A stretch of DNA of 64,000 nt from a virus (lineage: Duplodnaviria > Heunggongvirae > Uroviricota > Caudoviricetes), in IMG/VR virus record IMGVR_UViG_3300049044_000033, positions 32,001-96,000 of that record; one strand, written 5' to 3'. Positions within the stretch are counted from its first letter, which is position 1; every line of letters begins with the position of its first letter. The translations under genes were made by a program, and so were the position numbers. The notes under the pieces are model-generated. The model had not been told where the DNA came from. It was given only the letters and a program-made list of their open reading frames with translations, and did not search any database. Of this stretch, positions 29,968 through 62,834 are shown piece by piece.

Positions 29968-30021
29968 AACGATCTCCTTTCGCACATAGTTTAGCACAAA
30001 AGGAGAACTTGTCTACCATTT

Positions 30022-30330
30022 TTAGGCAGATGCTGCTACTTCTGATCTAGCCCGACGGATTGCATCAGCGACCTCCATGCCCTCAGCCTTGTAGCGTTTG
30101 ATCAAGTCGATCATCTGACTATCAGCTTTGACCGTGTAGGGCACGAATTCCTTGTATTCTACTTTGTGCTCACTTGCCCAAATCTTGGCGTGCTCTTCAG
30201 CATAGAACAAGTTGGGGAAGCTCGCAAAGTAAGCTTCCCGGTCGCCAAACCCGTCGGTGGTCGGGAAATACATAGTGGGGAGAAAGCGGCCGCCGTTAAC
30301 AACTTCGACCTTAACAAATGCCTTGCTCAT
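30022..30330 (-). CDS. hypothetical protein
   Basis: Own promoter-RBS element. Confidence 0.75.
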   Translation of the reverse strand: MSKAFVKVEVVNGGRFLPTMYFPTTDGFGDREAYFASFPNLFYAEEHAKIWASEHKVEYKEFVPYTVKADSQMIDLIKRYKAEGMEVADAIRRARSEVAASA

Positions 30331-30380
30331 TTCGATCTCCTGCTTCTGTTAATCACTAGATAACAGGATAGGTGAATAAG

Positions 30381-30590
30381 TCAACCAGTTTCTTCAAGTT
30401 CCCAGACTTGATTGCCCTCTGGGGCTTTGACATTGATCCGCTGCTGCTCAGTGAAATTATCCGTCCAAGCCTTTGTGGTTCGTCCTCGGCGCAGTCCGCC
30501 AGTCTGTTGATCAGTGGGACGGTATTTGCGAGTTCCCTTGCGGATGAATAAGCCAGTGTCATCTTCCATTATGACCACAATATTACTCAT
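30381..30590 (-). CDS. hypothetical protein
   Basis: ATGA overlap. Confidence 0.6.
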   Translation of the reverse strand: MSNIVVIMEDDTGLFIRKGTRKYRPTDQQTGGLRRGRTTKAWTDNFTEQQRINVKAPEGNQVWELEETG

Positions 30591-30931
30591 ACGGCAATCT
30601 GTCCACTTCTTTCTAAATGGTATTTGGCGGCTTCGTCGAGACTTGATAGTCCCTTTACGTCGCCGGCTGCAACCGCATGAGTAATCTCAGGATAGACATC
30701 AGGATCATGCGACCACAGCTTAACAAAATAAATGCCGGGTTGCGAGTCTTCCACTACACCGTAGCCAGCTTCACCCATTCCAAGATTGACGACCACGAAG
30801 TCATTGACCTCATAGACAGTTGGGCTCTTGTCTTTTACCGCCTCAAACATCTCAGTCAATACTTCAAAGGGTAAGTCATAGCCACGATCCCAAAGAAAGG
30901 TTCTTGCGGCTTGGGTTCTCTCGTCCCTCAT
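30587..30931 (-). CDS. hypothetical protein
   Basis: ATGA overlaps; start corrected. Confidence 0.65.
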   Translation of the reverse strand: MRDERTQAARTFLWDRGYDLPFEVLTEMFEAVKDKSPTVYEVNDFVVVNLGMGEAGYGVVEDSQPGIYFVKLWSHDPDVYPEITHAVAAGDVKGLSSLDEAAKYHLERSGQIAV

Positions 30932-31119
30932 TTCTTTTCCTTCCATGCGTCACCATAGATTGGATGCTCCCACCAAGGACCAGCGTGGTACCAGGACTGA
31001 GCTTGGCGGCTGCGGTCGAGAATCTGCCTAATTTCATGGGATTCTCGTGAGTTGCCGAGGGTTAGAATATCACCCAATGCGGTAAAGATACTTAGAAAGC
31101 CTTCAATCAAGGCCCTCAT
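30928..31119 (-). CDS. hypothetical protein
   Basis: ATGA overlaps. Confidence 0.6.
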   Translation of the reverse strand: MRALIEGFLSIFTALGDILTLGNSRESHEIRQILDRSRQAQSWYHAGPWWEHPIYGDAWKEKK

Positions 31120-31343
31120 CGAGTCAGCTCAATAGCCAACTGGTCAGCGGTCATACCGCTGTCGTAGTCCAACCCAAGCTGATGGAGGCCACGATTGTGA
31201 AGGCGCATTCCGGCATCATGTTCACTCAGGCCGGTAAGTTCTTGGATTCGATCGTAAGCGAGAACGCGCCATTTTGTAAAGGACGTCTGCGCCTTGCCTT
31301 GATGGGGAGATTCGGCGTTGTGGATTTCCCAAATGTTAGCCAT
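31116..31343 (-). CDS. hypothetical protein
   Basis: GAGGGG SD before MANIWE. Confidence 0.6.
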   Translation of the reverse strand: MANIWEIHNAESPHQGKAQTSFTKWRVLAYDRIQELTGLSEHDAGMRLHNRGLHQLGLDYDSGMTADQLAIELTR

Positions 31344-31620
31344 ATTTGCCCCTCTTGGATTTCCCAAACATCTTGTCGAAAATACCATCTTTACCGAAGG
31401 TCGACTCCATCGTTTCGTCGAACGCATCCATGCTTTTTAAGTTGCGAATTTCCTCAGAAAGTTCTCGCACCCGCTGATTTGACCTAGCGAGCTCCTCTTT
31501 TGCCCGCTGGCCGTCAACGAGCATATCATACACGGCTTTAAGCCATGCGCGCTTGACCTCGACTTTCTTTTCCTGATCGCCGAACGTAGCAGCTTTCAGG
31601 GTCGAGAGATCAATCTTCAC
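31336..31620 (-). CDS. coiled-coil hypothetical protein
   Basis: Operon packing; GTG start inferred. Confidence 0.6.
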   Translation of the reverse strand: MKIDLSTLKAATFGDQEKKVEVKRAWLKAVYDMLVDGQRAKEELARSNQRVRELSEEIRNLKSMDAFDETMESTFGKDGIFDKMFGKSKRGKYG

Positions 31621-31903
31621 TAGGCATCTCCTCGAGGAAGCCATCAGGGCGGATGATCCACTCCTTCACGATGCCGTCCTTGTTTTTCAGCCGCAAGATT
31701 GCGTCATACTCGCCGGTCATTTCGGCCAAGTCAGCAACTACCGCAAGCTGGATACAAGGCGCGTTGTCGAGGTCAGAAGCACTGACCTCGGGTTCACCTT
31801 CGTCGCGTGTCTCATTTGCGCAGTGGACCGCAACATCGAGCGCAGTTCTATCCAGACCCATTGCTTGACGCAGGGCATACATGGGAGGGATCTTGTCTGT
31901 CAT
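31610..31903 (-). CDS. hypothetical protein
   Basis: ATGA overlap, GGAG SD. Confidence 0.65.
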   Translation of the reverse strand: MTDKIPPMYALRQAMGLDRTALDVAVHCANETRDEGEPEVSASDLDNAPCIQLAVVADLAEMTGEYDAILRLKNKDGIVKEWIIRPDGFLEEMPSED

Positions 31904-32100
31904 TCGCCATACTCTCCGCGCAAAGCTGCAATTAGGTCTTTGAGGACTTCCTCAACGTCGTCGGCTTCCATGCCAGCTTCCAACATCGTTTCAGCAGCTT
32001 CCTCGACTGAATCGCCAGTATCTGAGTGCCACCAACCATCGCTTGGCTCCAAAGCTTTAGCAATGCGTTCTGCCACTTTAGTCAATGGAGCGGTCGCCAT
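31900..32100 (-). CDS. small acidic protein
   Basis: Operon packing. Confidence 0.65.
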   Translation of the reverse strand: MATAPLTKVAERIAKALEPSDGWWHSDTGDSVEEAAETMLEAGMEADDVEEVLKDLIAALRGEYGE

Positions 32101-32404
32101 CTACGCTATCCTTGTATCGTCTTGCCCACTTCTCACATTTGCGGAGAAGGATCTCATTGATTTTCTCGTCCGTAGTCTCGGGACGGTGTATGAAAATTAT
32201 GTCAAGAGCGCAAGCTATGATGTCGATGGCTTCGCCCACAACGCCATCGCTGCCCTCTTCTTCGCCAGCCCGGACCTTGGCTATCTCCTCATCCAGTTCA
32301 ACAATTTCAAGTTTGGTATGGCGGCTAGCATCTTCGAGCTGTCGACCATTCTGAACGATTCGCGCATAGTGGCGAACTATATCGAGAGGGTTATTGGTAT
32401 CCAT
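32078..32404 (-). CDS. MazG-like all-alpha NTP pyrophosphohydrolase
   Basis: EIVELDEEI...GEAIDII...KCEKW matches ExxE...ExxD spacing. Confidence 0.55.
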   Translation of the reverse strand: MDTNNPLDIVRHYARIVQNGRQLEDASRHTKLEIVELDEEIAKVRAGEEEGSDGVVGEAIDIIACALDIIFIHRPETTDEKINEILLRKCEKWARRYKDSVDGDRSID

Positions 32405-32440
32405 ATCCTATCGCTAAACAGGATATGGATACACGTCAAC

Positions 32441-32749
32441 CTAAAACAGACCTTCTACTGCCTGAGTCAGAGCCTGAGCTACCGCGCGATGGAGGAGGCG
32501 ATCCAATTCAACTTGGAGGTCATATTCGCAAAGGCTGTTCCAGCTCGTGGAACGATGAGTTTCCTTCAGCTTGCCCTGGCGGTTGTGAGCCTTACCTGTC
32601 CAGCTGTAGAGCTTATGAGGGTCAGAATCTTGACCTAGGGTTGCTACTGGCTTGTCCTTACGGAGAACCTCGGCAAAGGTCATCTGACCATCCTGGTAGA
32701 CGCGGGTCTCAAACTGGTCAACCAGTTCCTTAACATGCTTCATAGCCAT
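32441..32749 (-). CDS. hypothetical protein
   Basis: Own promoter-RBS element. Confidence 0.75.
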   Translation of the reverse strand: MAMKHVKELVDQFETRVYQDGQMTFAEVLRKDKPVATLGQDSDPHKLYSWTGKAHNRQGKLKETHRSTSWNSLCEYDLQVELDRLLHRAVAQALTQAVEGLF

Positions 32750-32813
32750 TGCCGATCTCCTCGTTGCTTCCTACCCACTCACATTAGCAGAATAGGTGAA
32801 CTAATCAACCAGT

Positions 32814-33230
32814 TTATTCAGCTTTGGCAAATTTAGAGTGACGCTGGAGGTCTTCATTGGTCCAAGTGCGGGGAGGGATGCCACCGTTCTCCTCAACCAA
32901 TCCGGCGATCCAGCCGTGGACCAAACCATTCATCCGGCAACGCAGGTACATGAAGGGGAAATAATCATCCCCCATATTGGATTCACGGGGATAGAGCAGC
33001 TTCAAGCCTTGGGCAGCGGAGTAATACTCCTGAGCGATGAAATACATACGCTTATTGGCACCATGGACGACCTTTTCACCGTCCTCGTTCTCCTGAGGGA
33101 GATCAACCATTGCGTCCAAGGCATTGAGCGCCTTCCAGACCAGATCCTCAAAGAGGGAATGCGAAGCCAAGCTATCGTTGAAAATCTCAATCTGCTTGTT
33201 GGTTGCTGGGTAGTTACCGATCTTCGCCAT
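32814..33230 (-). CDS. hypothetical protein
   Basis: Own promoter-RBS element. Confidence 0.75.
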   Translation of the reverse strand: MAKIGNYPATNKQIEIFNDSLASHSLFEDLVWKALNALDAMVDLPQENEDGEKVVHGANKRMYFIAQEYYSAAQGLKLLYPRESNMGDDYFPFMYLRCRMNGLVHGWIAGLVEENGGIPPRTWTNEDLQRHSKFAKAE

Positions 33231-33291
33231 TGCTTATCTCCTGTTCCGATTTACCCGTGATAGCAGAACTGGAAGAAGAGTCAACCAGTTT

Positions 33292-33591
33292 TTATCGGCA
33301 GGGAAGATATCGGAGGATCCATTTGGGATAACCCTCAGGTGTCATAATGATATCAGGAACCGCAAGGGCATCATTGCCAGTTTCAATCCAGCCTTGGCCG
33401 AGACAATGATCACAATTGGCGCGCTTGCTGCGAAGACTTATGAGGTCAATCTCGGTGTTCCACTGACCGTGTCCCTTACATGTTGGGCACTTCGCATCCA
33501 GGGTAGCGCCTCGAACTGCGACAGGGATGCAGGTGAAAGCATGAGGATCATCCACACCAGTTGTTACATGGACTTTACTGGGGTGGCTCAA
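33292..33591 (-). CDS. DnaJ-type Zn-finger small protein
   Basis: CPTCKGHG...CDHCLGQG. Confidence 0.7.
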   Translation of the reverse strand: MSHPSKVHVTTGVDDPHAFTCIPVAVRGATLDAKCPTCKGHGQWNTEIDLISLRSKRANCDHCLGQGWIETGNDALAVPDIIMTPEGYPKWILRYLPCR

Positions 33592-33965
33592 TTGACTTCT
33601 CCTTCAATATATTCCTGCCAAAGGTCGCCAGTCCACTCGTAGGTACCGGCCTTTTTACCTGTTGGTATGGTCAGCTTTGCGCCTCTGAATAGCACGCCTT
33701 GCGCCCTTACAACAAGAAACGCCCACGTTGGGTCAGGGACTTTCACATGATTTAAACGGGCAGGCATTTCAACTTGAATGGAGCCACAATCCCAACCAAG
33801 TGGTTCATTAGCAGCGATCGTTCTCGCAGGCTTCCTAGGCGGAGGAGGCAGGGCACGAAAAGTAGGACGATCCCAGAATGGTTGAAAGCGAGGATCCGCA
33901 GGGTTGTCCTTGGAACCACCGAGCCAGTCGGGGTAGTTCCAAAAATCCAAAGGATCAACGTTCAT
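33588..33965 (-). CDS. hypothetical protein
   Basis: ATGA overlap. Confidence 0.65.
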   Translation of the reverse strand: MNVDPLDFWNYPDWLGGSKDNPADPRFQPFWDRPTFRALPPPPRKPARTIAANEPLGWDCGSIQVEMPARLNHVKVPDPTWAFLVVRAQGVLFRGAKLTIPTGKKAGTYEWTGDLWQEYIEGEVN

Positions 33966-34231
33966 TGCGCAGCAATGCCCAGTTCGAGGAGGAGGTTATC
34001 CAATTCGATTTCGGTTCCGCGGAAGAACCCGGTTTGGTTACAGCCAAGATCGGCCCAGACCGAAACGATATCGGTTCCGATTTGGATACCGTAACCTCCA
34101 TCAGTGGAAATCGTCCGAACACCCTTGAATTCCCAACGGTCAACAAGGCTACCAGGTGTTAAAGTCCCTTCGTTCTTAACGAAGTGATGGATTGCTTCGA
34201 CCTTCTTAGCGATGCTTTCATTGAGAATCAT
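33962..34231 (-). CDS. hypothetical protein
   Basis: Own promoter-RBS element. Confidence 0.75.
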   Translation of the reverse strand: MILNESIAKKVEAIHHFVKNEGTLTPGSLVDRWEFKGVRTISTDGGYGIQIGTDIVSVWADLGCNQTGFFRGTEIELDNLLLELGIAAQ

Positions 34232-34294
34232 TGGGATCTCCTCGTTGCTCTTCTTGTCACCACTTTAAAGGAAATAGGTGGGGAGTCAACACCT

Positions 34295-34510
34295 TTATTC
34301 AGTTTCTCCGAGGGCCCATTTGCTGTAGGGCATACCACGAGCGCGACGCATACGAGCAAGCTTGATATCGGCTTCGGTCGGCCCACGAGCAATTCGAGCA
34401 GCTTCTTCCAGAGCCCGCTGTCTGTCGAGAGCGTTGAAAAAGCCCTCGATGTCAATATTCAGAAGAGCCTGATCCATTGCCCGGCTGCTACGAAACTTCC
34501 CACGTGCCAT
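34295..34510 (-). CDS. small basic protein
   Basis: Own promoter, GAGGAG SD; start corrected. Confidence 0.65.
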   Translation of the reverse strand: MARGKFRSSRAMDQALLNIDIEGFFNALDRQRALEEAARIARGPTEADIKLARMRRARGMPYSKWALGETE

Positions 34511-34567
34511 GCTCAACTCCTCTGATGTTAAAACCAAACTAGCAGAATAGGTGAAGCAGTCAACCAG

Positions 34568-34792: not shown

Positions 34793-34801
34793 CTTACTTC
34801 C

Positions 34802-35176: not shown

Positions 35177-35226
35177 TACGATCTCCTGTTTCTCTTCTGA
35201 CCTGTTTAGCAGAACTAGGAAAGGTG

Positions 35227-35752: not shown

Positions 35753-35763
35753 TCATCTTCTCC

Positions 35764-38437: not shown

Positions 38438-39415
38438 TTATGAAGCGCCGAGGAGAAGAGTCACATTACCCGTTCTTACATCTGCATCCAAGAGATCCTG
38501 GCGATTAGAATGAAGAACTCGATGAAGGGTTGGTTTGATATTGAACGCTTGTGTAGATAGAGAACCAGGGAAGACTATGATGACCTCGAGGTTTATAGGC
38601 AGATCAATCCACTTGCCATCCACAAACAATTGAGTAATCATCCGATCTCTCTTACCGCACAATGCTGTAAAGAAGCGATGATCGTAATGGGCACCTTCAA
38701 TGAGTTCCTGCCCCGGTTCTATAATGAGATGAGGATCTTTTCTCAAGAAATATTGGTTGATCTTTTGTGCCAATGATTTGACCCAAGGGATCTGACCCAC
38801 TAAGCCATAGGCGTCAGATATCCCTCGACGATTTAGTGGGCCAGCAGCCGTCCACTTCTTTTCATCTAAGCTCGAACCTAGTCTACTCCACCGTCCCATC
38901 GAGTTTTTGGTGAGGTTTCCTAGTAGGCGAAAATCCCTTTGGGTGTCTTGATACTTGAGTCGCTGGATTGATAGATCAAAGGTTGCCTTAGGGCATTTCA
39001 AGGGAGTAATAGCAGTCATGAGTCGGTGCCCTAAAGTCCAGCATTGATCTAGAATAGACTCGGAGGGTGAATAAACCTCCGAACCTTGGCTGAATGTGCG
39101 GGGCTTGGCTACAATTTTCCCTTCCTTCTTCTCAGCTTCTATGGCTATCTTCCGAGCAAAATAGCCATGTTTCTGAGGTTGGAAATAGAATAGGTCTCCC
39201 AATCCTGATGTAATATCACCATTGCCATAAAAGTTACGCGCAATATCTAGCAGCGGTGCCTGCCAAGGTAATTGCTCACTGGGATTTTCCAATAATCCCG
39301 TCCATAAATCTTTGATAACAGTGGCACAATGGATTATCACAGCATCGTGACCGGCCATAAAACGAGACGCTAAGGACCCAGGCGATAGGTCCTTTAAATC
39401 CATCTCGCTTATCAT
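38438..39415 (-). CDS. 2OG-Fe(II) oxygenase, IPNS/ACC-oxidase-like
   Basis: GAHYD (HxD)...GKWIDLP...VFPG...PTLHRV (distal His) pattern. Confidence 0.7.
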   Translation of the reverse strand: MISEMDLKDLSPGSLASRFMAGHDAVIIHCATVIKDLWTGLLENPSEQLPWQAPLLDIARNFYGNGDITSGLGDLFYFQPQKHGYFARKIAIEAEKKEGKIVAKPRTFSQGSEVYSPSESILDQCWTLGHRLMTAITPLKCPKATFDLSIQRLKYQDTQRDFRLLGNLTKNSMGRWSRLGSSLDEKKWTAAGPLNRRGISDAYGLVGQIPWVKSLAQKINQYFLRKDPHLIIEPGQELIEGAHYDHRFFTALCGKRDRMITQLFVDGKWIDLPINLEVIIVFPGSLSTQAFNIKPTLHRVLHSNRQDLLDADVRTGNVTLLLGAS

Positions 39416-40777: not shown

Positions 40778-40838
40778 GTTTCGATCTCCTGCTGTTATCA
40801 CAAACTGGTAACAGGATTGTGATAAAAGTCAACCAGTT

Positions 40839-41147: not shown

Positions 41148-41223
41148 ACCGATCTCCTTGTTGCCAATTCCATTTAGCACATAGGTGAAAGGAGTCAACC
41201 AGTTTCTGATATGCTAGATACAA

Positions 41224-41253
41224 CAATGGCCCTACGTTTCCGCAGAGCCATTG
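41224..41253 (-). terminator. 13-bp hairpin with GAAA loop
   Basis: CAAUGGCUCUGCG-GAAA-CGUAGGGCCAUUG (G-U pairs work on the minus-strand RNA). Confidence 0.7.
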
Positions 41254-41453
41254 GGTTAGAGTGCTATTTAAGTGCGGCCTGAGTAGCTGCCATCTAGGCG
41301 CCTTCTCATCCGCTTGTCGCCGGTTTCTATCACAAAAGTTTCAAAGCCAACTGTTAAATCTTACGCACTCTTACCTCCTTCGCTCTGTTGATCCGCTTAT
41401 TGCGTTGTGTCTACACCCTGGACTATAAAGGGTAAGTCCAGGGTGTCAACCAC

Positions 41454-41815: not shown

Positions 41816-42163
41816 TTAATTGACGGTTGCGCCCAAAAACCGCAAGGTGCGCTGGAATTCTTCAGCCCAGTCTGCCGTCACTGCGCGCTGCTCGCGCATC
41901 ACGAGAACCAGCGTTTCTTGAGCCTGCAAGCGACGAACCCAAGTGCGAGGGATCCGCATACCGGCCTTGATCTTGCCATCGATGCGCTTGATCAAATCAT
42001 AGCAGTCATCAGCGACTTGACGAAGTTCCTGGCTTTCCGGACCAGTATCGACGACCAGCTTGTCGCCCTCTACTTTGTAATGCGGGTAGTTGCGAATGAT
42101 CGCAAAGCACATCTTTGCCTGGTTCAGCATGTAGGGGACATAGGTGCCTTCAAACTGTGCCAT
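41816..42163 (-). CDS. hypothetical protein
   Basis: Own promoter-RBS element. Confidence 0.75.
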   Translation of the reverse strand: MAQFEGTYVPYMLNQAKMCFAIIRNYPHYKVEGDKLVVDTGPESQELRQVADDCYDLIKRIDGKIKAGMRIPRTWVRRLQAQETLVLVMREQRAVTADWAEEFQRTLRFLGATVN

Positions 42164-42236
42164 CTTTCGATCTCCTTGTTTGCTGTCTACTCACCTGTTT
42201 TAGCACATAGGTGAGCAGCGTCAACCAGTTTTTGGA

Positions 42237-42793: not shown

Positions 42794-42852
42794 TGTCGAT
42801 CTCCTGTTTCTATGCTGCCATGATAGCAAACTGGTTGAAAGAGTCAACCAGT

Positions 42853-43029
42853 TTATTTCTTCACAGGGACCCAGCGGATTTCGTAACGGTCGCGGTCAAT
42901 GCTCTGAAGGAACTTCGCGCCCGCGCTGCTGACTTCATTGAATTTGTTGAAACCAAAGACCTGCTCATCCGTCCAATCTGCCTCAGTCTGTGCGCTAAGA
43001 CGGTGGCGGGTTTGAAGCATCTTCTTCAT
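42853..43029 (-). CDS. hypothetical protein
   Basis: Own promoter-RBS element; start corrected. Confidence 0.7.
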   Translation of the reverse strand: MKKMLQTRHRLSAQTEADWTDEQVFGFNKFNEVSSAGAKFLQSIDRDRYEIRWVPVKK

Positions 43030-43092
43030 ATTCGATCTCCTGTTTCTACCTATCCAAGATAGCAGAAACAGGTGAGAAGTCAACTCCAGTTT

Positions 43093-46744: not shown

Positions 46745-46801
46745 TCTCGATCTCCTCTTTGTTGTCCTCTTGATAACATAGAAGAGGTGAATGTCAACAC
46801 C

Positions 46802-47089
46802 TTAATCGTTATAAACAACGAGGCGGGGACCTTCGATCCCTCGACCGAAACCGTCGACTGGTCGGAACTTCCAAGCCACAATATCGCCATGCTCAAACCG
46901 GGTCTTCTCACGCTCGACTTCGTAGAAGCAATAGCGGATGTTTCTCGTCTCGCCGTTGATCATGAAAGCTTCGTAGCGCAACGCCGCCTCAAAATTGAAG
47001 TGGGTAGCAGCCAGATCCGACACAAAGGTCGACAAAGTGTTGGTTGCCTTGTTCCACGTAAATTCGTGAACCGAAATTTCCTGAACCAT
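46802..47089 (-). CDS. hypothetical protein
   Basis: AGGAGGT SD before MVQEIS; ends in YND. Confidence 0.7.
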   Translation of the reverse strand: MVQEISVHEFTWNKATNTLSTFVSDLAATHFNFEAALRYEAFMINGETRNIRYCFYEVEREKTRFEHGDIVAWKFRPVDGFGRGIEGPRLVVYND

Positions 47090-49087: not shown

Positions 49088-49792
49088 TTAGAAGCGACGA
49101 CTGATACCCAGAATGAGTTCGAGTGCGGGGGTATCTTGGGTCAAACCAATGTTGGCATTCAGATCTAGCTCAGTGTTGCTATCTGCCGTCCAAGTGCCCG
49201 AAACGTCGAATGACACTTGAGTTTGTTCCCGATTGTGTTGCGCAAACAATTCAACGGCTGCTCCAAATGGGCCGACAATCGTTTGGTTTACACCGATGGC
49301 TCCGCTCACTTGACTAAAGGGTAGAGCAAACACCGTAGGACTTATGTAGAGCTGGGTCTCTGAACTAAGATCATAGGTCACTGCTAGCGCAACACCTGCG
49401 CCGAAGAGCTCCTGAGAGATACCCCTAGATCCCGTAGGGATAACGACCATTGGCTGAATAGCAGCGCTCAACTGGCCATCGAGGATGTTGTGGCGAACGT
49501 TGATCTTTAGATCATTCTGACCAATACGAGAACCCTTCCTCACCCAAGGGCTCACTGCGAGTTGGATTTCAGTTGAGCCACTCAGGCCATACCTGACCAC
49601 TGTATCACCGAGCAGCAAAGTTGAATCAGCATCGTCGAACCAATCGGTGATACTGACTTCAACTTGAACGTGACCTGGATCAACGATACAAGGTTGAATG
49701 GCACCTCGGTCGGGACAAAGTGGTTTAAGGGTCTGACCAGCTGCCGGACTGGTCAGAACCCCTAAGAACAAGAGTGAAGGAAGAATCTTCAC
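49088..49792 (-). CDS. outer-membrane beta-barrel 'transporter' (MetA-pathway/phenol-degradation-like)
   Basis: Signal peptide KILPSLLFLGVLTSPAAG; LCPDR...PCIVDPGHVQVE; RYGL...EIQL; alternating strands; C-terminal Phe. Confidence 0.7.
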   Translation of the reverse strand: MKILPSLLFLGVLTSPAAGQTLKPLCPDRGAIQPCIVDPGHVQVEVSITDWFDDADSTLLLGDTVVRYGLSGSTEIQLAVSPWVRKGSRIGQNDLKINVRHNILDGQLSAAIQPMVVIPTGSRGISQELFGAGVALAVTYDLSSETQLYISPTVFALPFSQVSGAIGVNQTIVGPFGAAVELFAQHNREQTQVSFDVSGTWTADSNTELDLNANIGLTQDTPALELILGISRRF

Positions 49793-49797
49793 TCTCT

Positions 49798-50169
49798 TCA
49801 AAACTCCTTCAACTTGAGGGAAAAATTGCGAGCTTCCTGCTCGGCGGTTCCGATGATCGAAGTGGGCACATCGTAGTAGAAAGCTACCCAATGGCCGCGC
49901 CGGAGAACGTTGATCGTCTTCTCAACTTTGCCCTTATTCTTACCCCGTGTGATAGTCCGGGTCGTGACCTCGACTTTGCGGCGAACTTTGTGGAGGTTGT
50001 AGAGCCGGGCAATTTGGTTACCTCCTTCACCACGGATGAGGTAGTTGCCGCGCCCGTAATTGGTGCGGAAATGCGAAGATGCCCACATACCGCCTCGCAG
50101 CTTTTCGAGCAGCTGGCTCTTCGTAGCAGCTTCCATCTTCTTGGGCTTGAGCTTCATCGTGATCTGCAT
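49798..50169 (-). CDS. basic hypothetical protein
   Basis: Own promoter-RBS element. Confidence 0.75.
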   Translation of the reverse strand: MQITMKLKPKKMEAATKSQLLEKLRGGMWASSHFRTNYGRGNYLIRGEGGNQIARLYNLHKVRRKVEVTTRTITRGKNKGKVEKTINVLRRGHWVAFYYDVPTSIIGTAEQEARNFSLKLKEF

Positions 50170-50234
50170 TTTCGATCTCCCTTTTTGCTTCTATTCACCT
50201 GTTTTAGCAGGTAGGTGAATAGAGTCAACCGCTT

Positions 50235-50645: not shown

Positions 50646-50709
50646 ACTCGATCTCCTGTTTGTTTCTATGCCACATAGATAGCAAGAAACAGGAGAACGT
50701 CAACCAGTT

Positions 50710-51696: not shown

Positions 51697-51754
51697 CGCT
51701 GCTTCCTTGTTATCCAACCTGTTCCTATGCTGAAACAGGTTGGATGTCAACCCC

Positions 51755-52249
51755 TCAATCCATCCATTCCATCCGACGCTTGTGTGAACGCTCGATATCA
51801 AAATCGCAGTTGCGATTCGCGAACGTTGCGAGATCCAAACGATGGGCTCGCGCCCCGTGACCGGGCTGGATCGTCACAGACTTCTCAGTGATCTTCGTGA
51901 TCGAACCAAGGTAGTCGAAGTTGTAGGAATCGTAGATCGCAGTGTCGCCTTCTGCGAACGTGATATCGATGGTTTTGTGACCATACTGGCCGGTCAGATG
52001 GATTGTCTTCTTGCCTGCTTCATTCACCCCAAAGGCAGCAAACATACCGGTTTCCTGCGAGGGATAAATTTGGCCGAAACGCTTGCGTTCCTTGGTCATG
52101 ATCGGCGTGCGATCTTCTTTCGGCAAGACAACTGCGCGAGCATGTTCCAGTGCCGTCACGATTGCCCGACTTTCAGGAGTGCCGAGGCCGTAGCTCTTTG
52201 CCATAGCCATAATCGCTGTCGACATCTTTTCAACGGTAACTGCGTCCAT
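51755..52249 (-). CDS. hypothetical protein with SH3-like C-terminus
   Basis: FAEGDTAIYDSYN...ITKITEKSVTI; own promoter-RBS element. Confidence 0.75.
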   Translation of the reverse strand: MDAVTVEKMSTAIMAMAKSYGLGTPESRAIVTALEHARAVVLPKEDRTPIMTKERKRFGQIYPSQETGMFAAFGVNEAGKKTIHLTGQYGHKTIDITFAEGDTAIYDSYNFDYLGSITKITEKSVTIQPGHGARAHRLDLATFANRNCDFDIERSHKRRMEWMD

Positions 52250-52313
52250 CGTTCGATCTCCTGTTTGCTCTATGTCTCCACTATAAAGCAAACAGGTGAC
52301 GCGTCAACCTGTT

Positions 52314-53484: not shown

Positions 53485-53543
53485 CTTCGATCTCCTGTTT
53501 TGTTGCCTTATGATAACAAAACAGGAGCCAAAGTCAACCGCTT

Positions 53544-54319: not shown

Positions 54320-54376
54320 TGTCGATCTCCTGTTGTCTTGCCACCACTTTATAGGAAAGGTGAGGAGTGTCAACCA

Positions 54377-54406
54377 AAATAATGGGGAGGGTTTCCCCTC
54401 CCCATT
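54377..54406 (-). terminator. intrinsic terminator
   Basis: AATGGGGAGGG-GAAA-CCCTCCCCATT followed by ATTTT. Confidence 0.8.
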
Positions 54407-55615: not shown

Positions 55616-55675
55616 GTTCGATCTCCTCTTGCTTACTAGTTCACAATAAAGAAATAGGTGAACTAGTCAACCAGT

Positions 55676-57760: not shown

Positions 57761-58351
57761 TTATTCACCCTCTACCTCCCGTAGCACCACAACGCGGATA
57801 TACTTGCCCGTCGGACGCGCACCCTGGGTATAAGTAGCCTCAATGACCCGGAAACCCATCCGTTCCATATCGCCTTCGTCGAGTCGGCTAACATTCCTCC
57901 AACCCTGCTCGATCATCGTGCTTTTGACATCGGAGAGTCGGTTTGCGATGAATTCCTTACCATTTCGGTCAGCATACCGGCAGGGCCAAGATTCGAGCGC
58001 CTTCTTAACGCCTTCGATTAACTTTAATTCGCGTTCGTTGGAATCGACGAGCTTGCGAACTTCGCGGCCGCTATTAAGCAACATATTGGGATTCTCACGG
58101 AAGAAATCTCGGACCGCCTCGTTACTGCGAATGATTCGCTCGTTCTCGCGCTGGATGTGCTTGGCCATCAATTCGTTGGCTTTTTCTAAGTTAACGGGCG
58201 TTAACCCATTCGGGTAAACTGACTTGAAGCGCTGGAGGAGGAATTCAGGGTTAACGTCGTAGAAGGGAGCAACATTAGCAGCAACGCTTTCGGGCGTCCC
58301 ACCCTTGCGGAGTTCCTGGATAAAGTCGTCGAACGCTTCTGCCTTGCTCAT
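57761..58351 (-). CDS. hypothetical protein
   Basis: Own promoter-RBS element; start corrected. Confidence 0.75.
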   Translation of the reverse strand: MSKAEAFDDFIQELRKGGTPESVAANVAPFYDVNPEFLLQRFKSVYPNGLTPVNLEKANELMAKHIQRENERIIRSNEAVRDFFRENPNMLLNSGREVRKLVDSNERELKLIEGVKKALESWPCRYADRNGKEFIANRLSDVKSTMIEQGWRNVSRLDEGDMERMGFRVIEATYTQGARPTGKYIRVVVLREVEGE

Positions 58352-58407
58352 CTTCGATCTCCTGTGCTGCATTTCGTGTCACCACTTTAGCAGAACTGGA
58401 GACTACG

Positions 58408-58605
58408 TCAACCTGTTTTTCGGAAGTCGGTGGATTTTCCATCCAGAATTTTGATTGTGTCCCGATCCTGGAGACCACGATTGGCCATTGCGCTGACCTC
58501 ATCAGCAAGTCGACGTTCCGATCCTGGTCCGTCCTCAACGAAGCGACAATCAATATCGCCGCTCCCATTGTTGAGGATTACCCAAGTTCCAGTGTCTCTG
58601 CTCAT
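58408..58605 (-). CDS. hypothetical protein
   Basis: TGATG overlap. Confidence 0.6.
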   Translation of the reverse strand: MSRDTGTWVILNNGSGDIDCRFVEDGPGSERRLADEVSAMANRGLQDRDTIKILDGKSTDFRKTG

Positions 58606-59003
58606 CAGTAAAGCATCTCCCATTCAGCAGCCAGCTCTGCGTAGAAAGCAGCTTCATAGCGCGCCATACCGTTCGACATGAAGGAAGTAGACTGGTTGGT
58701 GAACCGATTCTTGTTGATTGCCTCGCGGCTGATAAAACCGTAGAGGTGCTCAACAACCGCTTCAGCTGTCTGTGGCTGCTGCTCGCTGAGGGTACCAGTA
58801 ACCTGCGCTTCTTCCCACTTGTTAATGTGGGTAAGGTAAACCGAAGCGACCTGCTTCTGCGCGGCCAGCTTCATTGTGCTCTCGGCCCAGGTGAAAGCGT
58901 GGACGGGATTCTCGTTCAAAGCTTCCTTGAACTTTTCGAGTTCGTGATCGGCCTGTGCAATAACGCTCTGGAACTTCTTCTTTACCTGCTGCAGAGTGGG
59001 CAT
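58605..59003 (-). CDS. helical hypothetical protein
   Basis: Own promoter-RBS element. Confidence 0.75.
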   Translation of the reverse strand: MPTLQQVKKKFQSVIAQADHELEKFKEALNENPVHAFTWAESTMKLAAQKQVASVYLTHINKWEEAQVTGTLSEQQPQTAEAVVEHLYGFISREAINKNRFTNQSTSFMSNGMARYEAAFYAELAAEWEMLY

Positions 59004-59066
59004 ATTCGATCTCCTGTTTCTGTTGTCCTCAAGTTAGCAGAAACAGGAGATGTGTCAACACCTATT

Positions 59067-59432
59067 TTAGGAATTGAGGATCTTATTAGCCCAGGAAGCA
59101 GACTTGCCCCATAGGGCACCGAGTTCGCGCTGGGTGATATTCCCACCGGTCATCACGACAGTGTCAAATACCCGCTTGACAGCATCCTCAATCGGAAGGC
59201 GCTTAGGAGTGCGGACCTTCTTTGCTACCTTGGTAGCCTTAGGGAGCAGCTCACGTGCCTCATTAAGACGGCGACGAACCGTTGGTACAGAGCAGCCCAT
59301 TTCCACGGCCAATTCCTTGAGCGTGTATTTCTGCTCAGCTTCGAGAAGGGCCTTGGCAAGATTGGAATTCATCTTGCCCATATAGACCCACGTGACGCCA
59401 GTAAGTGCGATCGTTTTTGCCGAAGTCTGCAT
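59067..59432 (-). CDS. double helix-turn-helix DNA-binding protein
   Basis: TLKELAVEMGCSVPTVRRRL and TQRELGALWGKSASWANKIL. Confidence 0.75.
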   Translation of the reverse strand: MQTSAKTIALTGVTWVYMGKMNSNLAKALLEAEQKYTLKELAVEMGCSVPTVRRRLNEARELLPKATKVAKKVRTPKRLPIEDAVKRVFDTVVMTGGNITQRELGALWGKSASWANKILNS

Positions 59433-59560
59433 AAGACAGAAATCCCTCTATTTGCGTAAAAGCTTTTGCTTGTTACGCTTTGTTGTAAAAGTCCCAAAAG
59501 GACGACGTGGATCCCCTTATACTAGGATCCACGCCGTAAAATCAATACCTTATTTAGACT

Positions 59561-59725
59561 TTAGTCTTCGATGCGCCAGTTCACCACACGACCGTCGATT
59601 GCTGCGCTCTTTGCGCTAATAACACCTGCGCGCTTGATGGGATCCTCGGCCTCTCCGTCGGAGATCTGGAAGGTCTGCTCCTTGCGATGCCGACCCTTTA
59701 TGTAAGTGATGATCAGCTTCTTCAT
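59561..59725 (-). CDS. hypothetical protein (54 aa, not in ORF track)
   Basis: MKKLIITYIKG...; ATGA overlap. Confidence 0.6.
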   Translation of the reverse strand: MKKLIITYIKGRHRKEQTFQISDGEAEDPIKRAGVISAKSAAIDGRVVNWRIED

Positions 59726-60042
59726 ACCGAAACGCGACCATCAACAACGTTTGCCAGCGTTTCGCCCTGGGCGACTCGGAACCAACCATACTTGGCGGGG
59801 ACCAGTGCGATCGATTCGCCGACCTTCAGGTTTTCCGAAAATGCGCTGGGAAGACCGATCCGGCGACCATTGCCCTTGACGCTCAGGTTCTTGAGCAGCT
59901 GGTCCTTAGAGAGGTTTGCGGCCGATTCGCGATCAGTGAAGCGGATCATGACCTGACCATCCTTGACCGTGATACGCGCCTTGGTGTTCGGTCCGATCTT
60001 CGAATTGGTCGCTTCAGTGTTGAAATTGATTACCTTATACAT
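59722..60042 (-). CDS. hypothetical protein, paralogue of 37516..37851
   Basis: Shared motifs; own promoter-RBS element. Confidence 0.75.
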   Translation of the reverse strand: MYKVINFNTEATNSKIGPNTKARITVKDGQVMIRFTDRESAANLSKDQLLKNLSVKGNGRRIGLPSAFSENLKVGESIALVPAKYGWFRVAQGETLANVVDGRVSV

Positions 60043-60163
60043 TTCGATCTCCCTATTGTTGGGGCCCTATTGCCCCTCTTCATATGTTGACACTAACACC
60101 TGGTTAGTGGATGTCTACCACTTTTTCACCTAATTGTTAGAAAGATTTCCAGGTCATTTAGTC

Positions 60164-60192
60164 AAAAGAAAAGGTGGATTGCTCCACCCCTT
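60164..60192 (-). terminator. intrinsic terminator
   Basis: GGGGUGGA-GCAA-UCCACCUU followed by a U-run on the minus strand. Confidence 0.7.
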
Positions 60193-60202
60193 CTCTATTG
60201 AC

Positions 60203-60541
60203 TTAGGCTACTAGACCGTAAGTCTCGCGCTCTTCGCGCTGATCAGCAGTCATCATCTTGCCCAGAGCATGGAGGTAGCCGAAACGCGCAATCTGTCGCC
60301 ACGCGTCATTCTCGTCAGCCGATGTAAAGGCAATGAGCTTCACTGCGTTATCGATGGGCAGATCATTCTCTTCTTCATCGAGGCCGTTGCCATTGAATAC
60401 GGCAAACATGTTGGTTTCGACCGGCCGGTTAACCGTGACGAGGATTTCGTCACCGCACGAAATCTGTAGCAAATGCTCGCAATCGAAAGTCTGAGCCGTT
60501 AACGCATAATTGCGACGGGCGATCTCGTTATCGATGGACAT
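60203..60541 (-). CDS. hypothetical protein
   Basis: Own promoter-RBS element; start corrected. Confidence 0.7.
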   Translation of the reverse strand: MSIDNEIARRNYALTAQTFDCEHLLQISCGDEILVTVNRPVETNMFAVFNGNGLDEEENDLPIDNAVKLIAFTSADENDAWRQIARFGYLHALGKMMTADQREERETYGLVA

Positions 60542-60607
60542 TCTCTTAACTCCTGTTTGTGTTTTCTTATCACCACATTTAGAGCAAAAGGAGGTGAGCG
60601 TCAATAC

Positions 60608-60850
60608 CTATTTTGAAAACTTGGTGAGAATCTCATCCATCTCAGCAATCCTCTCCCGAAACTCCTTCAGGGTTTGCTGATTGATCTCATCTTGACGGGC
60701 CTGACCCATAGGTCCGCGAATATGCGGTTGGGCGAGTATGAGTTCCTCGGTTCGCGCTAGCATCTGAGCGAGTTCGTCACGCAAGCCCTGAGCCATCTTT
60801 TGATTGAGGGTATGGCGATTATCCCACCATACCTTTACGTTGACGCTCAC
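60608..60850 (-). CDS. helical hypothetical protein
   Basis: GTGA overlap start. Confidence 0.6.
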   Translation of the reverse strand: MSVNVKVWWDNRHTLNQKMAQGLRDELAQMLARTEELILAQPHIRGPMGQARQDEINQQTLKEFRERIAEMDEILTKFSK

Positions 60851-61209
60851 TGGGCTCCCTCTTTGGCCCATTCAGCATATCTGCTATAGACCTTTTCGAC
60901 CAGGCGCTCAGTGGCCTTCTGTGGGGTCATCGGACCCTTAACAGTAAGACCCTTGGCATTTTCATACCAACCGAAGCCGAGAATGTCCATGACGAACTGT
61001 TCCTGGCACTCTTCGACCAGTTTGCTGAAGAGTTCGTGGGTTCTGATAGAAACTCTGCCATGCAGGGCTTGTGCGTTCTCATTAGCCGGATTTGCGACTG
61101 TTATGACGAGAAGCCTGGCCGTGGAACCTAGACCGTCGAAATTCTTACCGGAGATCAAATCTCGCATGACCTGATCCTGAGCCATCATCACAACTTCATT
61201 AAAGTCCAT
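60847..61209 (-). CDS. hypothetical protein
   Basis: GAGGAGATCG RBS; start corrected. Confidence 0.7.
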   Translation of the reverse strand: MDFNEVVMMAQDQVMRDLISGKNFDGLGSTARLLVITVANPANENAQALHGRVSIRTHELFSKLVEECQEQFVMDILGFGWYENAKGLTVKGPMTPQKATERLVEKVYSRYAEWAKEGAQ

Positions 61210-61346
61210 GTCCGATCTCCTCAAAAAGGTGTTGGAGCGTAGCAGATGCCCGGTTCGACTTGTTTGTTCCCTTTGGACAAGCCTATGTAGACACTTGAAC
61301 TACGCTCCTCATCTCCTCTTTTATATAGGATAGGTGATACGTCAAC

Positions 61347-62834
61347 CTATTTGTTTACGCGATTGAAAATAATGGCTCGATGGATGCCGTTAAGCTTATT
61401 ATCGTTGATCTTTTCGGCCGTGATCTTTGACGTCCAATCAGCAACCTTGTTGGCTCTCGCTTGCTCAGTCTTCCTCTTGAGCAAGAACTGCTCAGCTTCC
61501 TCGGCTGAGTTGAACCCCGCTACTGTGTTGTCAACTTCGACCATAACGAACTGTTTGGTCTCGAAAGCCTTTACTTTATCGTCAGGGCAGGGAATACCAT
61601 TCTGACGACAGATATAGTCGACAAGATCCTTAATCGTATTGAAGGCAAAGAGGTCTGGGATAGATGCCTTGAATTCATTTTCAAGTATCATCGTTACTTC
61701 CATCTCATCCTCATTTGAGATGTAGAGATCCTTCAGGGAGAAGGTAACGTCAATTTCTTCATAAAGGATTGATTCAAAATGGAAGCTCACACTGTGGTAA
61801 ATATCGTCCCAAGTTGCCTTGATTACTTTGAAAGACTTGCGTGACTTGGGTAGAGGATCAATGCCAGCCAATTTAGCAATTGCATCAATGTCGTCATCAT
61901 CGTCATCGTCAGCTTCCCATTCCTCAAAGTCATCAAATGGATCGACAACCTTCTCTTCTTTCTTAGGAGGAGCGAGCAAACTTTGAGCCACAATATCATC
62001 GGCTTCAAGCTGACGAAGGTGTCGCATTGCAGCGGGCTGATAATTCACAGGAGGTGACCACCATTCAGGTGCTGGGAGAGGCTCGGCGAGGGGACCATTG
62101 GGGTTGAGGAAGAATGCCTCAGGGTTCATCCAATACAGATCGTTCTGTTGACGCTGCTGCTCGACAGTCCAGAGGCTATTCGTGATCTTAAGAGGACCTT
62201 GCTCCTCTAGTTCTCGAGCAACCCGCTGCTCACTGGTCTGAATGAGTTGGAGTTTCTTTTCCATCTCTCCTTGGTTCTTTTGGTATTCGGTAATTTGATC
62301 CTGTAGGCGAACGTCCTTCACCATCTGTCGATTTACTGCTACCCACCACATCTTGCCCAAAGTGGTTATAAGACCATCACGACTCAAATCCACATCAGTG
62401 TAGTAGTCGACGATCTCCTTTTCGGAATTTGGCATAACTGTTGCCAAATTTTTAGACTTTTGAACCACATAACAGGCTTGTAGATTATTGCGTAATTCTA
62501 CGCCTTGCTCAGTGAGCAGATAGTATTGGTTTTCAAAAATAAAAACCAACTTCTTCTGTAAAAGAGTAACGATGTCATTTGTGTGAGCATCAGGCCAAAG
62601 CGGATCTACATCCTTATAGAGCTTGAACCCATTTATCCACTTGCCGTTTTTGCTGCTAATGAGTTTGGCTGATTCGGCTGTGCGGATAAGATCCACTTGC
62701 CATTCCGATAGACCATGGCGTTCGTCGAGAACCTTGAGGGCGCCTTCCCACTTTCGGCCTCGGATCAAATCAGCAGGCGACATCCTGTTTTCTCTTATGT
62801 CCCTGCGGACTGCTTCTGCGCCACCAAAAATCAT
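61347..62834 (-). CDS. multidomain protein with acyl-carrier-protein-like domain
   Basis: DLYISNEDEMEVTMILENEFKASIPD...TIKDLVDYI aligns with ACP [20 protein letters not shown]..EIPD...TV....DYI. Confidence 0.7.
   Translation of the reverse strand: MIFGGAEAVRRDIRENRMSPADLIRGRKWEGALKVLDERHGLSEWQVDLIRTAESAKLISSKNGKWINGFKLYKDVDPLWPDAHTNDIVTLLQKKLVFIFENQYYLLTEQGVELRNNLQACYVVQKSKNLATVMPNSEKEIVDYYTDVDLSRDGLITTLGKMWWVAVNRQMVKDVRLQDQITEYQKNQGEMEKKLQLIQTSEQRVARELEEQGPLKITNSLWTVEQQRQQNDLYWMNPEAFFLNPNGPLAEPLPAPEWWSPPVNYQPAAMRHLRQLEADDIVAQSLLAPPKKEEKVVDPFDDFEEWEADDDDDDDIDAIAKLAGIDPLPKSRKSFKVIKATWDDIYHSVSFHFESILYEEIDVTFSLKDLYISNEDEMEVTMILENEFKASIPDLFAFNTIKDLVDYICRQNGIPCPDDKVKAFETKQFVMVEVDNTVAGFNSAEEAEQFLLKRKTEQARANKVADWTSKITAEKINDNKLNGIHRAIIFNRVNK

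Follow-up and report, generated by a model that had tools for sequence, protein, structure and literature searches.

Stem-loops between promoter spacers and their own leaders in a megaphage gene array: possible PeSL-type insulators

Why should the spacer of a promoter be complementary to the leader of the gene that it serves? The question is raised by an uncultured phage with a genome of 462 kb, which was compared with five related megaphages. The window, meaning the whole 64,000-nucleotide stretch of DNA analysed, contains an array of small genes on the minus strand (29968..61347) that continues past the window to ~116 kb of the genome. The products of these genes have no known function, and most of the genes are preceded by their own promoter cassette. 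The 5' half of the cassette consensus consists of an A-rich tract, CTGG, TTGACn and a 16-bp spacer with terminal TGn (extended -10). The 3' half consists of TAnnnT, a GG-rich discriminator, a likely +1 A, an A/C-rich leader, GGAGATCGAA and the start codon. The conserved A, 7 nt 3' of the -10 box, is the likely start site. The window holds 34 strict copies and also relaxed copies, for example at 30015, 41449, 51750, 60604 and 61345. Near-identical leaders stand before non-homologous genes in 20/23 cassette pairs.

An earlier note on this DNA had claimed that in many copies the spacer is complementary to the sequence that follows its -10 box. This was borne out by 100 units of promoter, Shine-Dalgarno (SD) sequence and ORF taken genome-wide. 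The duplex energy of spacer and own leader was -12.7 kcal/mol, compared with -9.85 kcal/mol for non-self combinations (z = -12, 0/5000 permutations). Over the six genomes the z-scores were -12, -4.3, -5.0, -7.2, -6.7 and -1.9. Ungapped stems equivalent to at least 10 bp were formed by 17% of own spacer-leader pairs, versus 1.8% of non-self pairs, 0.5% of spacer-shuffled pairs (the control that the note had proposed) and 0% with the partner reversed. Relative to the non-self, reversed and shuffled controls, strong stems were 10-30x more frequent, and ~12 of the 100 copies have perfect stems of at least 9 bp. Partition-function folding of the read-through RNA gave 9.0 expected pairs between spacer and downstream sequence, compared with 6.6 when spacers were shuffled or swapped (p = 4e-8 and 7e-7, respectively). 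Of all segments in the folded RNA, pairing was lowest inside the -10 box.

Individual hairpins were examined in the window. Promoters and genes are both minus-strand features; in RNA sense the higher-coordinate arm is the 5' arm, located in the -35/-10 spacer. The lower-coordinate arm lies 3' of the -10 box and takes in the GGAG SD at 59009-59022, 53492-53504 and others. The seven arm pairs listed earlier, in plus-strand coordinates, are all exact reverse complements, and the four copies said to use G-U form hairpins with 1-3 G-U pairs each. In 11/11 of these copies the claimed hairpin is the minimum-free-energy structure (-13.8 to -25.5 kcal/mol), with z-scores of -1.5 to -6.75 against dinucleotide shuffles. 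All hairpins below are on the minus strand.

Stems that cover the SD were designated class B. The longest perfect one (59009..59051; 14 bp, -20.4 kcal/mol, z -4.9) has its 5' arm (59038-59051) in the spacer, its 3' arm with the SD at 59009-59022 and the -10 box inside a 15-nt loop. The SD is also in the 3' arm of a 12-13-bp perfect stem (53492..53527; -24.6 kcal/mol, z -5.7), which grows to 19 pairs in the minimum-free-energy fold, and of a 13-pair stem with 3 G-U (29973..30006; -18.8 kcal/mol, z -3.5) behind the -35 variant TAGACA. At 43039..43072 an 11-pair stem with one G-U has a 3' arm extending to the SD (z -3.25). The 10-bp perfect core at 52260..52296 has the SD in its 3' arm (-23.9 kcal/mol, z -5.5) and folds into 14 pairs including one G-U; the orthologous genes in two relatives also have SD-covering stems, of different sequence. 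Absent from the earlier list is a 10-bp perfect stem covering the SD at 50652..50696 (TCTCCTGTTT with AAACAGGAGA).

The remaining named hairpins belong to class A. Two are perfect stems of 12 bp. The first (51712..51745; -25.2 kcal/mol, z -6.75) has 14 pairs in the minimum-free-energy fold, encloses a weak -10-like box and has a 3' arm that stops before the SD. The second (41413..41446; -25.5 kcal/mol, z -5.8) has a 5' arm beginning within the -35 hexamer, the -10 box in a 10-nt loop and a long leader after it. The stem at 50185..50228 (z -4.1) has an 11-bp perfect core, 50190-50200 with 50213-50223, that can be lengthened to 16 positions. Shorter perfect stems are found at 55635..55667 (10 bp, energy marginal, z -1.5), where the 5' arm is the end of the -35 hexamer plus spacer, and at 40795..40825 (9 bp, z -2.2). 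A stem of 12 positions with one G-U lies at 42187..42218 (CTGCTCACCTAT with ACAGGTGAGTAG; z -3.1). An alternative geometry was seen at 42828..42854, where the spacer pairs with its upstream flank over 11 bp (AAACTGGTTGA with TCAACCAGTTT) and the stem contains part of the -35 box.

Strong copy-specific stems are present in 27/100 copies of the phage genome and in 20-38% of copies per genome among ~300 host-type promoters of the six genomes; 62-80% of promoters per genome have none. Over all six genomes, hairpins with one arm between the two promoter boxes are present at about a third of the ~300 promoters. In the window they occur at 10/34 strict copies and at three further copies claimed as strong, outside the strict set (51750, 41449 and 30015). 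The "many" copies of the earlier note are therefore about a quarter to a third, and the pattern it placed at 29968-61347 is found there but also genome-wide and in the related phages. As the note had said, stem sequence varies from copy to copy while one geometry is shared; the register varies too. The whole -10 box is in the loop of 81% of strong stems, the loops are 4-35 nt long (median 13), and all of them have their 5' arm before the conserved A, the presumed +1.

In the other copies complementarity is weak and limited to what the family consensus provides, with spacer CACC or CTCC opposite downstream GGTG or GGAG. Such a core, TCACC(T)...(A)GGTGA around the -10 box, could be a palindromic operator at which a phage or host repressor shuts off the promoter. 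Spacer CACC is associated with post-10 GGTG in the phage genome (odds ratio 3.8, p = 0.007), and the half-sites shift together between clades (CACCT/AGGTG vs CACCAG/CTGGTG). Spacing is fairly constant: in 32 core copies pooled over six genomes the loop is most often 14 nt (11 copies), followed by 16 nt (9) and 15 nt (6), and in a two-genome listing most core copies of the phage genome have the 14-nt loop. However, no significant association was seen in the relatives (odds ratio 1.4), and a post-10 GG is also expected from a good discriminator element. Around the core, seven positions tend towards paired covariation (p = 0.02-0.09). The strongest stems, whose arms are unlike the core and unlike each other, are left unexplained by an operator, which we consider very unlikely.

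We considered whether masking of the ribosome site, which the earlier note had put forward beside a pause or processing site, is the general role. The spacer would then be selected as a cis anti-SD, so that every gene is translated from its own-promoter transcripts alone. In the family consensus the spacer (CTCCTGTTTCTG or CACCT...) comes close to reverse complementarity with the leader (CAGAAACAGGAG), SD-covering perfect stems of 10-14 bp occur, and T4 precedents are documented (PMC3014915, PMC2988022). At least half of the SD is paired to the spacer in 42/100 predicted read-through RNAs, compared with 17-22 in controls. Nevertheless, the SD lies within 38% of 89 strong stems but within 48% of strong stems made from shuffled spacers, and there is no enrichment. 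SD accessibility in the read-through RNA is 0.389 overall versus 0.411 with shuffled spacers (p = 0.29), and that of the GGAG core differs little (0.26 vs 0.33, p = 0.007). In read-through context promoter-bearing genes are not significantly more occluded at the SD than promoterless ones (accessibility 0.303 vs 0.335, p = 0.15). Masking is seen in a subset, and as a region-wide role it is decidedly unlikely.

The hairpins may also have no function. Partial complementarity of spacer and leader would seed quasi-palindromes. These would be perfected when repeated cassettes undergo template switching or gene conversion with one another, and would then decay neutrally. Cassettes clearly move or recombine between unrelated genes, register varies, most copies have no strong stem, and hairpin strength is often unequal between orthologs. 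In the stems G-U and A-C are near equal (118 vs 92; null fraction 0.49, p = 0.02), as neutral decay of a strand-symmetric repeat predicts, and the sense-strand signature expected of RNA structure is weak. On the other hand, hairpin strength is more alike among orthologous than random genes (p = 0.01), and certain ortholog groups retain strong stems though their sequences differ. The excess recurs in six diverged genomes that have different consensus stems, and ~12 perfect stems per 100 copies are many for neutral decay. Equivalent PeSL (promoter-early stem-loop) hairpins measurably affect expression (PMC2839356). A by-product is thus an unlikely explanation.

Weak strand asymmetry and the sharing of cassettes by unrelated genes would also suit a structure in DNA. 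A cruciform or single-stranded-DNA fold might control the promoter, by analogy with phage N4, or provide a site at which cassettes are exchanged by recombination, comparable to PeSL crossover points and, by analogy, integron attC sites. Long loops disfavour cruciform extrusion, and loops of 4-35 nt (median 13) argue strongly against extrusion from duplex DNA. The early promoters of N4 are DNA hairpins that its virion RNA polymerase recognises; their stem is 5-7 bp and their loop 3 nt, they have conserved contact bases and no sigma-70 boxes, and they depend on gyrase and SSB (PMC4496689). The megaphage cassettes resemble them in having an inverted repeat at a phage early promoter (the megaphage timing is presumed) in which non-conserved stem bases covary. 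Unlike these promoters, they have long loops and complete -35 and extended -10 elements, and N4's stem, loop and polymerase-read bases are all absent. Furthermore, an extruded spacer hairpin abolished rrnB promoter activity (PMC4496689). The N4-like cruciform of the earlier note fits poorly, and a role in DNA is highly improbable.

The reading that we favour, and to which we give about an even chance, is that the hairpins are PeSL-type insulators. They would act in read-through RNA only, in an array nearly without terminators, with occlusion of the ribosome site as an extra in a subset. The cassette would be a composite of host sigma-70-type promoter, stem-loop and ribosome site in a variable, presumably early, gene array. 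Because the genes are packed tightly (the -35 box begins a median of 6 nt after the preceding stop codon), only the 16-bp spacer and the start of the leader would be free in sequence between genes. A hairpin built from these segments therefore necessarily has the -10 box in its loop. Since the 5' arm precedes the likely transcription start, given standard sigma-70 geometry, the hairpin should be missing from own-promoter RNA and present in read-through from upstream promoters, which upholds the reasoning of the earlier note; the relevant molecule would be RNA. A scan of the array found terminator-like sites at chance level only, so read-through is expected. Among the few real-looking intrinsic terminators are a bidirectional 11-bp GC-rich stem at 54381..54406, directly upstream of the promoter at 54373, and a 13-pair stem at 41224..41253 (minus strand), directly upstream of the promoter at 41198.

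Each hairpin may thus shield its gene from expression by read-through. For some 40% of strong cases SD pairing would be the means, the mechanism known from T4 e, soc and I-TevI. In the remainder the hairpin, immediately 5' of the ribosome site, might cause attenuation, pausing or RNA processing/stability, roles that were proposed and partly tested for PeSLs (PMC2839356). Canonical intrinsic termination is unlikely because the stems are followed by A-rich sequence and no U tract. Hairpin action is evidently not required for most genes, since 62-80% of promoters have no strong stem.

Three known systems bear on this proposal. In IS10/Tn10, Davis, Simons and Kleckner reportedly described in 1985 a "fold-back inhibition" of transposase translation in transcripts from outside promoters. 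There too a sigma-70-driven gene is said to be shielded, in that only read-through RNA has the upstream arm able to pair with the ribosome site, but it is one transposon gene and the arm is in the element end, not in a promoter spacer. RBS-sequestering hairpins with an internal promoter are known from T4 e, soc, 49, I-TevI, I-TevII/III and segB and from Aeh1 mobE; the inhibitory 5' strand lies upstream of the start of a promoter just before the ribosome site, so that long transcripts are silent and promoter-proximal transcripts are translated (PMC3014915, PMC2988022). This arrangement is matched by the SD-covering subset here, for which the precedent of T4 e, soc, 49 and I-TevI named in the earlier note is apt, though that note missed the closest system, the PeSLs. 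In T4 the internal promoter is late and gives a temporal early-versus-late switch at single genes. Here the promoter is host-type, its own spacer is the 5' arm, the predicted contrast is between own and upstream transcripts, and dozens of genes are involved.

The cassettes match most closely the PeSLs of the T4-type phages RB49/phi1, PST and nt-1 (Arbiol et al. 2010, PMC2839356; Comeau et al. 2014, PMC4122927). Both are repeated intergenic cassettes, placed in a variable region ahead of small genes without known function, with an A/T-rich tract, sigma-70-type -35/-10, a stem-loop in or over the promoter, SD and start codon. In both, unrelated genes have cassettes in common; like PeSL regions, the arrays of the related megaphages are collinear apart from gene replacements. 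When a PeSL stem-loop was inserted between a promoter and lacZ, expression fell to a degree similar to that caused by the rrnB T1 terminator (PMC2839356). Passed through the same pipeline, phi1 gave a spacer x post-10 stem at 11-14 of 56 candidate promoters, and the region-wide pattern is not unprecedented, whereas the earlier note had named precedents at single genes. The geometry is identical: in phi1 the 5' arm comes from the spacer's 3' part, the 3' arm starts directly after the -10 box, and the arms vary and compensate (GGGAGT/ACTCCC, GGGGAT/ATCCCC, GGGTGT/ACACCC, GCGGTT/AACCGC). The two differ in lineage and size, the phages here being an uncultured clade of ~460 kb, and in their stems, which here are copy-specific with up to 14 bp perfect (19 pairs folded) and loops of 8-25 nt, and not G-run/C-run motifs. 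Hairpins wholly within the spacer are common in phi1 (13/56) and are no feature of the megaphage cassettes. Beyond the PeSLs, some hairpins here also cover the ribosome site: the SD is covered in 1 weak case of 21 in phi1, compared with 38% of strong stems in the megaphages.

The virus record is 462,455 bp long with direct terminal repeats, and the window comprises its bases 32001-96000. DNA and protein searches of the window against the phage collection returned zero matches. The minus strand, from about 30 kb of the window to its end and then on to genome position ~116 kb, is tightly packed with small genes. Pfam and PHROG searches with 20 proteins from this array assigned almost no function. 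Among the larger array genes, family matches were obtained only for 38438-39415 (-), with a 2OG-Fe(II) oxygenase domain match (E = 2e-5), and 49088-49891 (-), with a borderline match to a MetA-pathway (outer-membrane-type) family (E = 1e-4).

Most array genes are headed by the same cassette, which runs from an A-rich tract through CTGG, TTGACn, a 16-bp spacer ending in TGn (extended -10), TAnnnT, a GG-rich discriminator and an A/C-rich leader to GGAGATCGAA and the start codon. The last two elements lie 51-62 nt past the start of the -35 box. Counting from the -35 box, adenine occupies positions -7 to -5 in 64-71% of copies. An A 7 nt past the -10 box, conserved in 69/100 copies, was taken as the putative start site. 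To count as a unit, a site had to match a strict promoter pattern and be followed by an SD and an ORF of at least 40 codons. The whole genome has 100 such units (93 on the minus strand), of which 34 fall within the window, with a concentration at genome 62-116 kb. By consensus scan, 34 promoter-like sites were found between 29.9 and 46 kb, where 16.4 were expected. Nearly all array ribosome binding sites (RBSs) are GGAGATCGAA, in which a GATC (Dam-type) site separates the SD from the start codon; 34 exact copies of GGAGATCGAA occur in the genome, 32 on the minus strand, and GGAGATCG is retained in relatives too.

The cassettes leave little room between genes. A median of 6 nt (mostly 4-6 nt) separates the end of the preceding gene's stop codon from the -35 box, and in six cassettes at genome 61-117 kb the stop codon is a TGA inside the -35 hexamer TTGAC. 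The promoter and RBS occupy the intergenic gap of ~60 nt, in which only the spacer and the early leader are unconstrained.

An earlier note proposed that spacers pair with the sequence past the -10 box to form hairpins. The seven arm pairs listed there as perfect are exact reverse complements, with their coordinates correct, and in 11/11 named copies the claimed hairpin is the minimum-free-energy structure (-13.8 to -25.5 kcal/mol). The z-scores of these 11 copies range from -1.5 to -6.75, nine being at or below -2.2. Each of the four copies described as using G-U pairs has 1-3 of them. On the RNA-sense strand, the spacer holds the higher-coordinate arm, and the lower-coordinate arm is past the -10 box.

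Because the register of the stem varies among copies (arm-index sums 38-64), fixed-register column-wise covariation is uninformative, and own-versus-non-self tests were used instead. The -35-plus-spacer segment of every copy was paired with the post-10 segment of every copy. Own pairs had a mean energy of -12.7 kcal/mol versus -9.85 kcal/mol for non-self pairs (z = -12; 0/5000 permutations). Using an ungapped score, a stem equivalent to 10 bp was found in 17% of own pairs but in 0.5% of composition-preserving shuffled spacers, 1.8% of non-self pairs and 0% of reversed-partner controls. Partition-function folds of the read-through RNA gave 9.0 expected spacer-downstream pairs, compared with 6.6 when spacers were shuffled or swapped (p = 4e-8 and 7e-7). 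Spacers and leaders thus do co-vary, as had been claimed. Pairs flanking the CACC/GGTG core gave p = 0.02-0.09 each, and an Rfam search of 29-64 kb produced no matching family.

The claim that many copies carry a stem with the -10 box in its loop stands for the geometry and the covariation, but a strong stem is present in only 27/100 copies. The loops of the strong stems span 4-35 nt (median 13) and in 81% of these stems contain the whole -10 box. Position by position, the spacer pairs downstream with a probability of 0.45-0.62, and pairing is lowest in the interior of the -10 box. The remaining copies have only weak consensus complementarity, between CACC or CTCC in the spacer and GGTG past the -10 box or GGAG in the SD. 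A palindromic operator might explain this consensus subset, a reading to which we give very little credence. At 42828-42854 and 46785-46802 the spacer pairs with the upstream flank (AAACTGGTTGA with TCAACCAGTTT; AGGTG with CACCT), an arrangement that puts the -35 box in a stem or loop. Many spacers contain CCAG, complementary to the conserved CTGG that precedes the -35 box.

Any intergenic hairpin must use the two unconstrained stretches, spacer and early leader, and since the -10 box is between them it lands in the loop. The loop geometry need not mean that exposure of the -10 box is the point. The earlier note had raised an N4-like DNA hairpin. N4 promoters have a 5-7-bp stem, a 3-nt loop, conserved contact bases and no sigma-70 boxes (PMC4496689). 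In contrast, the cassettes have long loops, sequence-diverse stems and a full -35 box and extended -10, which speaks against the N4 model, and DNA-level structure as a whole appears highly improbable.

Under standard sigma-70 geometry the 5' arm lies upstream of the start site in every case, as the earlier note had argued. An RNA hairpin is therefore possible only in transcripts that come from upstream. Such read-through transcripts are expected because terminator-like sites occur at chance level (19 versus 15.2 expected; 18 versus 17.5), and convincing terminators were found only at 41224-41253 and 54381-54406. The stems themselves were also considered as intrinsic terminators. This reading was rejected, as their 3' arms run into the A/C-rich leader without a U tract and the terminator-pattern scan skips them.

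A strand test with symmetric scoring was applied to distinguish G-U from A-C pairs. Own stems have 118 G-U and 92 A-C pairs, where the null expectation for the G-U fraction is 0.49 (p = 0.02), and the strong stems alone have 43 and 32. The excess leans towards sense-strand RNA without settling the matter. The same 118:92 split is also expected from neutral decay of a symmetric repeat, as would occur if the hairpins were a by-product of quasi-palindromes with no function; we regard a neutral origin as unlikely. Should it hold nonetheless, these stems would advise caution in inferring selection from covarying inverted repeats in repeated cassettes.

The suggestion that the hairpins mask the RBS is borne out, in sequence and predicted folds, for a subset of strong stems and not for the family. 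Of this genome's 27 strong stems, 17 share bases with the SD, and in 42/100 copies at least half of the SD is paired to the spacer segment, versus 17-22 in controls. Over six genomes, however, only 38% of 89 strong stems cover at least three of the four SD bases, compared with 48% of the strong stems formed by shuffled spacers. The predicted unpaired probability from SD to start codon is 0.63 in own transcripts, 0.39 in read-through transcripts and 0.41 in read-through transcripts with a shuffled spacer. SD accessibility did not differ significantly between promoter-bearing and promoterless genes, a comparison based on crude gene calling (67% coding). SD occlusion is thus a property of a subset and not of the family. 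Masking of the RBS as the purpose of the whole family, which the 42/100 figure might suggest, is improbable given the coverage and accessibility obtained with shuffled spacers. Since SD coverage is no better than with shuffled spacers and accessibility changes little, the selected feature would be the hairpin itself.

Relatives were traced by an alignment-based locus search that started from a 495-aa protein heading the array. Five related large phage records (182-465 kb) were recovered, and all have the same cassette family. CACCAG/CTGGTG is found in four of them, and CACCT/AGGTG in this genome and its closest relative. The six genomes together provided 303 cassettes for analysis. The own-versus-non-self excess was observed in 6/6 genomes (z = -12, -4.3, -5.0, -7.2, -6.7 and -1.9), and strong stems make up 20-38% of the copies in each.

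Matched genes keep a collinear order in the arrays of the five relatives, and many unmatched genes are interspersed among them. In 17 ortholog groups hairpin strength was more alike within a group than after permutation (p = 0.01), though many groups are mixed. A strong stem covers the SD at the gene at 51755-52249 (-) and likewise at its orthologs from two relatives, formed each time by different spacer and leader sequences. This gene, preceded by one of the strongest hairpins that cover the SD, encodes a 164-aa protein whose match to a phage ProQ C-terminal-like domain is sub-threshold (E = 0.005, short of the Pfam cut-off). RNA hairpins are ligands of ProQ-type proteins.

Near-identical leaders head non-homologous proteins in 20/23 pairs, and therefore cassettes have been shared or moved independently of genes. 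Discrete leader sub-families, such as ggtgacacgaaatgcagcacaggagatcgaag and aggtgagtagacagcaaac, occur at 58351-58411, at 42163-42224 and in relatives. They recur almost unchanged before unrelated genes and in other genomes, while their spacers differ. In one relative, on contig IMGVR_UViG_3300012942_000031 (L009, ~7170-7260), a cassette promoter precedes an apparent tRNA gene (gtagctcaatggtagagcag) and not a protein gene.

Geometry, statistics and analogy together suggest how the hairpins might function. The hairpin would be absent from RNA made by a gene's own promoter and present in RNA arriving from upstream, where it would insulate the gene from read-through expression, in a subset by occluding the SD and in the rest by some other RNA-level effect. 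That these are insulators of the PeSL type (promoter-early stem-loops of T4-type phages), formed only in read-through RNA, is our leading reading, held at about even odds. If they work in this manner, a giant phage runs ~100 tandem host-type promoters without terminators and spares chosen genes the accumulating expression from upstream, using the sole free bases of a 60-nt gap. An insulator of this kind, encoded in the spacer and removing itself from the transcript of its own promoter, would also make a compact part for synthetic biology.

A more speculative extension, which we offer tentatively, is that the promoter spacer also serves as a programmable cis mark that distinguishes "own" from "read-through" transcripts. 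A subset of genes, conserved by orthology, would then be licensed for translation or RNA survival only from their own promoters, giving promoter-autonomous dosage control over a terminator-free array of ~100 genes. The IS10 fold-back device, in which an upstream arm in read-through transcripts reportedly pairs with the RBS, is a precedent. If such marking is true, the fold-back device and the single-gene T4 e/soc switch are generalised to a genome-scale design rule.

The earlier note had cited the T4 e, soc, 49 and I-TevI hairpins as precedent. In RBS-sequestering hairpins of this type the 3' strand carries the SD and the 5' strand lies upstream of an internal start site. The precedent is correct for the SD-covering subset, where this arrangement is found, but for the family as a whole the PeSL is closer. 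Judged by sequence organization, the PeSL is the closest known system. Each PeSL comprises a sigma-70-like promoter preceded by an A/T-rich tract, together with a stem-loop and the SD and start codon of the gene that follows. Such cassettes recur in variable regions of T4-type phages, among many genes that lack a known function, and accompany the gaining, losing and replacing of genes among related phages (PMC2839356, PMC4122927). They were proposed to attenuate transcription from upstream, which was shown with lacZ in one case (PMC2839356), and were also shown to be recombination points (PMC2839356, PMC4122927). The cassettes described here likewise have a repeated intergenic sigma-70-like promoter (-35 and -10), an A/T-rich tract before the -35 box with or next to the upstream stop codon, a stem-loop in or over the promoter, though a weak one in most copies, and an SD and start codon at the 3' end. 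The setting may also be similar: the array genes are nearly devoid of Pfam or PHROG function, and the collinear arrays of the five relatives contain unmatched genes.

The T4-type phage phi1 was analyzed with the same pipeline. In 11-14 of its 56 candidate promoters the 5' arm of a stem is the spacer end and the 3' arm lies directly past the -10 box, with compensating variants. Another 13/56 have a hairpin wholly inside the spacer, and the SD is reached in one weak case only. The geometry that the earlier note had set apart from single-gene precedents as region-wide is therefore already seen in phi1 PeSLs. PeSL-type cassettes, in the literature so far for T4-type phages, would now extend to an unrelated-looking uncultured clade of roughly 280-470 kb. 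The cassettes of this clade differ from PeSLs in lineage, in their long copy-specific stems and in a sizeable SD-covering class, which adds an RBS-occluding subset to the PeSL type.
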